From a virus (lineage: Duplodnaviria; Heunggongvirae; Uroviricota; Caudoviricetes), in IMG/VR virus record IMGVR_UViG_2718217789_000006: a DNA stretch of 64,000 nucleotides; one strand, written 5' to 3'. Shown piece after piece: positions 1,773 through 3,623 of the stretch. The notes beneath the pieces were generated by a model. The model ran no database searches. It saw only the letters and a program-made list of their open reading frames with translations, and was not told the origin of the DNA. Each line of letters begins with the position of its first letter. Within the stretch, counting starts at the first letter, position 1. A program made the position numbers and the translations under genes.

Positions 1773-3623
1773 ATGTCGATTAAACATTATGATGTTGTCA
1801 GGGCGGCGTCGCCGTCAGACCTTGCGGAAAAGCTGACACACAAACTGAAAGAGGGCTGGCAGCCGTTTGGTAGTCCGGTGGCCATAACCCCTTATACCCT
1901 GATGCAGGCGATTACAGCAGAAGGTGATGTGGTGGTCAGTGGTGCAACTGAGCCGGATTGGTACTACGTCATCGTACTGGCCGGGCAGTCCAATGCCATG
2001 GCTTACGGTGAAGGGCTTCCGCTGCCGGATTCATACGATGCTCCGGATCCGCGCATTAAACAGCTGGCGCGCCGCAGTACAGTGACGCCGGGTGGGGCTG
2101 CCTGCAGATATAACGATATTATTCCGGCCGACCACTGCCTGCATGATGTGTAGGATATGAGTACGCTGAATCATCCGAAGGCAGACCTGAGCAAAGGGCA
2201 GTACGGCTGTGTCGGCCAGGGGTTACATATTGCCAAAAAACTGCTCCCGTATATCCCGAATAACGCGGGGATCCTGCTGGTACCATGCTGTCGTGGTGGT
2301 TCGGCATTTACCCAGGGCGCGGAGGGGATATTCAGCGAGTCCACGGGGGCCAGCCAGGATTCGGCGCGCTGGGGTGTGGGTAAACCGTTATATCAGGACC
2401 TGATTGCGCGCACCAAAGCTGCATTACAGAAGAACCCGAAAAATGTGTTGCTGGCGGTGTGCTGGATGCAGGGAGAGTTTGACATGAGCGCCGCCACCCA
2501 CGCACAGCAACCTGCGCTGTTTACAGCCATGCTGACACAGTTTCGTGCTGACCTCTCCGTGTTTAACGCGCAGTGCCATGGTGGCAGTGCTGCAGATGTG
2601 CCGTGGATTTGTGGTGACACGACGTATTACTGGAAAAATACATACGCTACCCAGTACGACACCGTGTACGGCGGGTATAAAAACAGGGAGAGTGAGGGCG
2701 TTTATTTTGTGCCCTTCATGACAGACGGTAACGGCGTCAATACCGCCACTAACGCGCCGGCAGAAGATCCGGATATTCCGGCATCAGGATATTACGGTGC
2801 GGCATCGAGAACGAATGGAAACCAGGTATCATCAAACCGCCCGACACATTTCAGTTCATGGGCGCGCAGGAGCATTATTCCGGATCGTCTGGCAACCGCT
2901 ATTCTGAACGCAGCCGGGCGCACCTCAGCCTTCATCAGTGGTAAGGCACCGGAAATCAAACCCTCGCCCGGCGGCAACACGCCATCGGGTCCGTCTGCAG
3001 ATACGTCCGTTCGCACAATCTCCCTGCTGCCGGCAGCCGGAGAGGCTGCTGCGCAGGGCTGGAGCATTAAGGATGGCGGAATTCAGTTGTCAGATGGTGT
3101 ATTTAAGATCACCAGGCAGAGCAATAAAACCTGGTCCCTGACGCATCCGGTGGATGACGCAATTACCCTGCTGACACAGGGCGGCAGACTGACCTGTAAG
3201 TTCCGCCTGTCAGGCGCACTGACCAACAATCAGTTCGGGCTGGGGATTTATCTGTATACGGACGCTCCCGTTCCTGATGGTGTGGCGATGACGGGTACCG
3301 GTAATCCGTTCCTGATGTCGTACTTCACTCAGACCACTGACGGCAGAGTGAATCTGATGCATCACAGGAAAGCCGGAAACACGAAGCTGGGGGAGTTCGG
3401 CGATTACGGTAACGACTGGCAGACGCTGGAGCTGGTGTTCACCGCCGGCAGTGCCACGGTTACTCCGAAACTGAATGGAGTGGCTGGCCCGGCATTCCAG
3501 GTTATAAAAGACAGTCTGACACTGGGACTGAATGCGCTGACGCTGACGGATGTTACAAAAAATGCAGCGTATGGCGTTGAGATAGAAAGTCTGATGCTGG
3601 AGATAAATGCACCGGCAGCATAA
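1773..3623 (+). pseudogene. NanS-p-like sialate O-acetylesterase paralog interrupted by one in-frame amber codon (TAG 2151..2153)
   Basis: ORFs 1773..2153 and 2157..3623 share a frame and together align with the intact 648-aa paralog at 50347..52293; the intact copy has Gln (…HCLHDVQDMSRLNHPKAD…) where this copy has TAG. Confidence 0.7.

Follow-up and report, generated by a model that had tools for sequence, protein, structure and literature searches.

A clade-restricted amber codon in a prophage nanS-p esterase gene of Escherichia coli O157:H7 PT21/28

The gene at positions 1773..3623 of the DNA analysed here, a stretch of 64000 nt (the window) spanning two tandem lambdoid prophages, is very probably a recently inactivated copy of the prophage nanS-p sialate O-acetylesterase gene, and an ordinary lineage-specific nonsense pseudogene. 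We propose that a C>T change on the branch leading to the UK sub-lineage Ic PT21/28 turned a glutamine codon (CAG, Gln127) into amber, and that translation would now end after 126 residues, keeping DUF1737 and Ser73 and losing the remaining SGNH fold. A protein restarted at Met129 would be without the nucleophile, and the esterase activity of this copy would be lost, trace basal read-through aside. Six other nanS-p-type copies would make such a loss tolerable, and drift or hitch-hiking may have carried the allele to fixation in the clone. The pseudogene status of 1773..3623 is already flagged in public annotation, where RefSeq/PGAP labels BFL16_RS13835 a pseudogene with "internal stop".

The interrupted gene and its surroundings

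Over its whole length the window matches E. coli O157:H7 PT21/28 strain 9000 at 100% identity (NZ_CP018252.2, 2800492-2864491, reverse strand). When its ORFs are read, the ATG at 1773 opens a run of 126 codons that ends at TAG 2151-2153, beyond which the frame is unbroken, passing through GAT to ATG 2157 and continuing over 488 codons to the TAA at 3621-3623. The initial annotation of this DNA had put the break in the first prophage copy at TAG 2151..2153 with the same frame on either side, and these coordinates are exact. The features discussed below are the following.

442..694, plus strand: prophage tRNA genes upstream of the 1773 gene, with CAT and TCT anticodons, neither of them an amber suppressor
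1661..1687, plus strand: terminator-like hairpin and T-run just upstream of the 1773 gene, in the late region, whose holin/lysozyme cassette runs from 4071 onward
1773..3623, plus strand: nanS-p-like pseudogene with one internal amber codon (BFL16_RS13835 of strain 9000), made up of DUF1737, a SASA/NanS-like esterase domain and a DUF6645 lectin-like domain
1773..2150, plus strand: N-terminal fragment of 126 aa, with the whole of DUF1737 (aa 4-50) and ~60 residues from the start of the esterase domain, GQSN among them
2151..2153, plus strand: TAG at codon 127, ancestrally CAG (Gln127), a C>T transition at 2151
2157..3623, plus strand: downstream ORF of 488 aa from Met129, with the remaining esterase domain, the linker and the C-terminal lectin-like domain
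50347..52293, plus strand: intact, divergent nanS-p allele of 648 aa in the adjacent prophage (copy 2), with CAG at 50776-50778

The gene order around the pseudogene is Q-like/DUF1133, an HTH gene, tRNA-Ile(CAT), tRNA-Arg(TCT), TerB, DUF3927, the terminator-like hairpin, the 1773 gene, holin and lysozyme. This is the position in which NanS-p genes are found, in the lambdoid late region, past the antiterminator and tRNA genes and ahead of the lysis cassette; the uninterrupted ORF of a NanS-p gene is absent, with TAG standing at codon 127. The tRNA at 442-517 is named 'Met (CAT)' by ARAGORN and tRNA-Ile by PGAP, and corresponds to an ileZ-like, lysidine-dependent Ile2 tRNA typical of lambdoid and Stx late regions, while the tRNA-Arg(TCT) occupies 618-694. 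Downstream of the pseudogene there are two similar GCCAGC...GCTGGC hairpins (3625-3660 and 3780-3825), the first of which is followed by a T-run on the minus strand and is terminator-like in that direction, and plus-strand terminator-like hairpins at 3927-3944 and 3989-4015 lie ahead of the holin gene.

Several other features of the region were recorded. In the PT21/28 outbreak genomes from PHE, the tRNAs are preceded by DUF968, RusA and a PF06323 Q-type antiterminator where strain 9000 has DUF1133/HTH, and mismatches between these genomes and strain 9000 cluster across the tRNA region. Such upstream differences within one clade suggest recombination between prophages, or else differences in assembly. 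In the second prophage, 43495-45511 (BFL16_RS13570/13575) encodes an NgoMIV-family type II restriction endonuclease together with a DNA cytosine methyltransferase, and QueH and another DNA methyltransferase (48785-49843) lie beside the Q antiterminator of that prophage. Three DUF1076 genes in a row (29353-31494) occupy the right end of prophage 1 and directly precede the prophage 2 integrase; DUF1076 is the NleG-type effector family.

Read across the stop, the protein of the 1773 gene has three parts. DUF1737 (PF08410) is present at aa 4-50 with E = 2e-16, as scored on the 126-aa fragment, the SASA domain (PF03629) at aa 66-262, and a C-terminal lectin-like jelly-roll domain (PF20350, DUF6645) at aa 467-577 with 66 bits. 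The NanS structure 3PT5 aligns over residues 59-379 (E = 9e-122), and 6YP6 aligns to aa 421-613, corresponding to 3033-3611 (E = 2.5e-29); an NCBIfam scan of the intact allele returned no informative family. The EHEC NanS-p proteins (933W z1466; phi24B vb_24B_21/gp84; PDB 6YP6 for the C-terminal domain) share this architecture of DUF1737, SASA/NanS-like SGNH domain and DUF6645, their genes hold the same late position in lambdoid prophages upstream of the holin/lysozyme cassette, and they too occur in several copies per O157 genome (PMC8065619). Unlike them, the 1773 copy has an amber codon at residue 127, a divergent C-terminal domain and a non-Stx prophage as its home. With the chromosomal 9-O-acetyl-Neu5Ac esterase NanS (YjhS, 3PT5) the alignment of residues 59-379 is end to end, and GQSN and the catalytic His are kept; however, NanS is intact and has neither DUF1737 nor the C-terminal domain, whereas the catalytic pair of the 1773 gene is split over two ORFs.

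Origin, distribution and age of the stop codon

The initial annotation compared the interrupted gene with copy 2 in the neighbouring prophage and reported CAG (Gln) there in place of the stop, which a DNA alignment finds at 50776-50778. Amino acid identity between the two copies is 53% over the whole protein, rising to 70% for the esterase domain and falling to 33% for the C-terminal one, and they are to be seen as divergent alleles, not as near-identical paralogs. Owing to this divergence, copy 2 shows only that the family state is Gln, and nothing of when the stop arose; the better comparator is provided by other O157:H7 strains, in which the ortholog of copy 1 is intact. The divergence of the two copies has other aspects as well, since copy 2 carries insertions of 3 and 14 codons between the DUF1737 and esterase domains relative to copy 1, and its DUF6645 match scores 249 bits against 66 bits in copy 1, from which it would follow that the C-terminal lectin-like domains belong to different subtypes.

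Comparison with related prophages, which the initial annotation had put forward as a check, was informative in this respect. Across 2401 nt the sole mismatch between strain TR01 and the window is C for T at 2151, and the TR01 allele is intact, encoding the 616-aa protein WP_000023184.1 (annotated "SASA family carbohydrate esterase") among the same flanking genes. The same intact protein is encoded by strain 155, and the WP_000023184.1 ortholog, found in TR01, 155, 86-24, PA20 and others, has CAG (Gln127) and not TAG at this codon. In order to follow the allele more widely, we matched an 81-nt sequence centred on the TAG exactly against 5426 complete E. coli genomes. The TAG form was present in 27 of these, all of them strain 9000 or Z-series, and close forms without TAG, differing at 1 to 4 positions, were present in more than 625 genomes. 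Within the Z-series/strain 9000 collection, whose assemblies were PacBio-sequenced, the ten sequenced field isolates are PT21/28 and were picked across the PT21/28 phylogeny, and the other members named are calf-passaged derivatives of strain 9000 (PMC8743559). TAG is also found in four PT21/28 sub-lineage Ic genomes of a 2017 outbreak sequenced by PHE with ONT (CP043011/15/19/25) and in a fifth long-read assembly, VIFQ01; in two of them the gene is identical to that of the window.

Strain 155 belongs to sub-lineage Ic as well, but is PT32 (PMC7200060), and PT32 is reported to have given rise to PT21/28 about 25-30 years before the papers (PMC8190617). To judge from these comparisons, the stop at 2151 is real, derived and placed on the PT21/28 branch, and the mutation is probably only decades old. 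The sequence after the stop is without decay, which so recent a mutation would explain; relaxed selection is not readable from the sequence, as expected for a change of that age. A single SNP relative to WP_000023184.1, a TAG restricted to one clade and an intact gene in the PT32 relative 155 are what a lineage-specific nonsense pseudogene presents. Of the two options that the initial annotation had offered, a recent pseudogene is strongly supported by this lone derived C>T change, confined to UK PT21/28, and PGAP agrees.

Other inactivations occur in the nanS-p family, and O103:H2 strain 12009 is an independent example. Its nanS-p product (BAI33875.1, 129 aa) has a near-identical N-terminus and ends three codons further on than the fragment described here, and was considered as a case of a recurrent nearby stop. 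This was ruled out, as the truncation is due to an IS3-family element, beyond which the gene is missing, and not to point nonsense. The truncated allele (AP010958.1) lies directly downstream of stx1AB, the IS3-family element comprises HTH_Tnp_1 and rve, and the holin is missing. The full text of a paper on NanS-p diversity (PMC10462455) contains no mention of a stop codon or of a truncated allele or pseudogene.

Fate of the two pieces and the question of read-through

The catalytic residues of E. coli NanS are Ser19 and His301, and its oxyanion hole includes Gln18 (PMC9063846). In the 1773 gene, Gln72 and Ser73 of the GQSN motif (nt 1986-1991) align with Gln18 and Ser19, the nucleophile Ser73 being encoded at 1989-1991, and His359 (nt 2847-2849) aligns with His301. 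Codon 127 lies ~60 residues into the catalytic domain and not in a linker, and the stop separates Ser73, on the 126-aa piece, from His359, on the 488-aa piece, so that an essential part of the enzyme is removed from each. Since the nucleophile and His359 are on different pieces, neither piece should be active alone, and esterase activity would be expected to be lost from this copy. The initial annotation had spoken of a two-domain split product, which is wrong, as codon 127 falls inside the SASA/NanS-like domain. A polar effect of the stop on the downstream lysis genes is not expected.

It is conceivable that the pieces are nevertheless functional, either as a 126-aa DUF1737 capsid-decoration protein, or as a reinitiated 488-aa carbohydrate-binding module or reassembled esterase, or both, although we consider this very unlikely. 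DUF1737 (aa 4-50) is whole within the 126-aa fragment, and a 2026 preprint (bioRxiv 10.64898/2026.04.10.717836) reports that DUF1737 of gp84, the NanS-p homologue of phage phi24B, decorates the capsid and is cut away from the esterase by proteolysis. The C-terminal lectin-like domain is unbroken, and with ATG 2157 only 3 nt past the stop, termination-reinitiation could be imagined. However, the cut falls within the SGNH fold, after its first ~60 residues, rather than at a domain linker. Met129 is a conserved internal residue, part of HDVQDM in both NanS and copy 2, and not a newly gained start. ATG 2157 lacks a Shine-Dalgarno sequence at a suitable distance, the sole AGGA of that type ending 1 nt before it, and because of this poor spacing expression of the second piece would presumably depend on termination-reinitiation. 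In addition, unlike phi24B, this prophage has a lambda-type head with a gpD-like decoration protein of its own, and the split is clonal and only decades old, with no sign of selection for it. Still less likely is the more adaptive version of such an account, in which the amber codon gave rise to an independent DUF1737 protein that binds or decorates the capsid, whether or not a reinitiated lectin module devoid of esterase activity is made as well, or in which the low dosage provided by a trickle of Gln read-through was selected in PT21/28.

The other option of the initial annotation, that full-length esterase is made by amber read-through, whether by a suppressor tRNA or in a programmed or context-driven manner, appears extremely unlikely and finds no support in what follows. 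In its favour, the frame is kept on both sides of TAG 2151-2153, and if tRNA-Gln(CUG) read UAG as a near-cognate codon, Gln would be inserted and the wild-type protein restored, at trace levels only. The activity of the 1773 copy may for this reason not be strictly zero, through low-level UAG read-through by tRNA-Gln. Against read-through as the normal mode of expression, the TAG is derived and private to one clone, CAG being ancestral and present in essentially all other alleles; a stop conserved among homologues is not seen, as copy 2, NanS (HDVQDM) and the TR01 and 155 orthologs all have CAG. Folding of 2130-2250 gave no more structure around the stop than shuffled sequence does (z = 0.11), and since the flanking RNA differs from that of intact alleles by the SNP alone, it cannot be the product of evolution towards a recoding signal. 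To our knowledge, E. coli has no pyrrolysine system.

A check of the host for amber suppressor tRNAs, also suggested by the initial annotation, gave a negative answer for the genes that it covered. The metT-glnV operon of strain 9000 was read directly, and both of its tRNA-Gln genes, glnV and glnX, are wild type with CTG anticodons, the nearby lysine tRNAs having TTT; a supE-type suppressor is thereby ruled out in this strain. The prophage tRNAs are Ile2 and Arg, and no amber suppressor was present among glnV, glnX, the nearby lysine tRNAs and the tRNAs of the window, a set to which the host genes tyrT/V/U, serU, leuX and trpT do not belong. The supE44 form of glnV has exact matches in 155 genomes, and all 30 of those listed are laboratory K-12 derivatives. 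Near the glnV operon of strain 9000, ybeQ (TAG at codon 52) and djlC (TAA at codon 151) are internal-stop pseudogenes too, and nonsense pseudogenes, amber ones included, are not unusual in this genome.

There is next to no chance that the TAG arose from faulty sequencing or assembly, as, even though mis-assembly is common for multi-copy prophage genes and short-read assemblies break at exactly the 2151 variant site to give spurious 126-aa 'partial' proteins, the T at 2151 occurs in 27 complete assemblies and in separate ONT assemblies of other PT21/28 isolates from PHE, a second laboratory using a different technology. The scenario that the initial annotation named as fatal to its claim, in which the true codon is CAG and the stop an error, is accordingly not borne out. 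Some care is required with database counts: an exact match to the 126-aa protein is annotated on 26 contigs, but this number is misleading as a frequency of the TAG allele, as in the five short-read contigs examined the sequence reaches the contig edge at ...GATGTGC (the CAG form) or a base short of it, and these represent assembly breaks among paralogs, not TAG alleles. Because contigs break at the variant site in this way, counts of the exact protein overestimate the TAG allele.

Redundancy of nanS-p and significance of the loss

Seven places in the strain 9000 genome match the esterase core of the 1773 gene, the intact copy 2 being one of them. With six other copies available, the inactivation of one is expected to be nearly neutral, and we infer that losing the 1773 copy was so. 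The NanS-p alleles of EDL933 and O104:H4 have been described as all being active esterases that allow growth on Neu5,9Ac2 (review, PMC8065619).

The pseudogene appears to be one more decaying accessory gene in a prophage-rich O157:H7 genome, and as such matters little. The SNP at 2151 can serve to mark the UK PT21/28 clade (sub-lineage Ic), and the number of functional nanS-p genes in PT21/28 would be six at most, not seven. Since EDL933 and O104:H4 are well known to possess redundant NanS-p copies, the loss of one copy is unlikely to alter growth on O-acetylated sialic acids.
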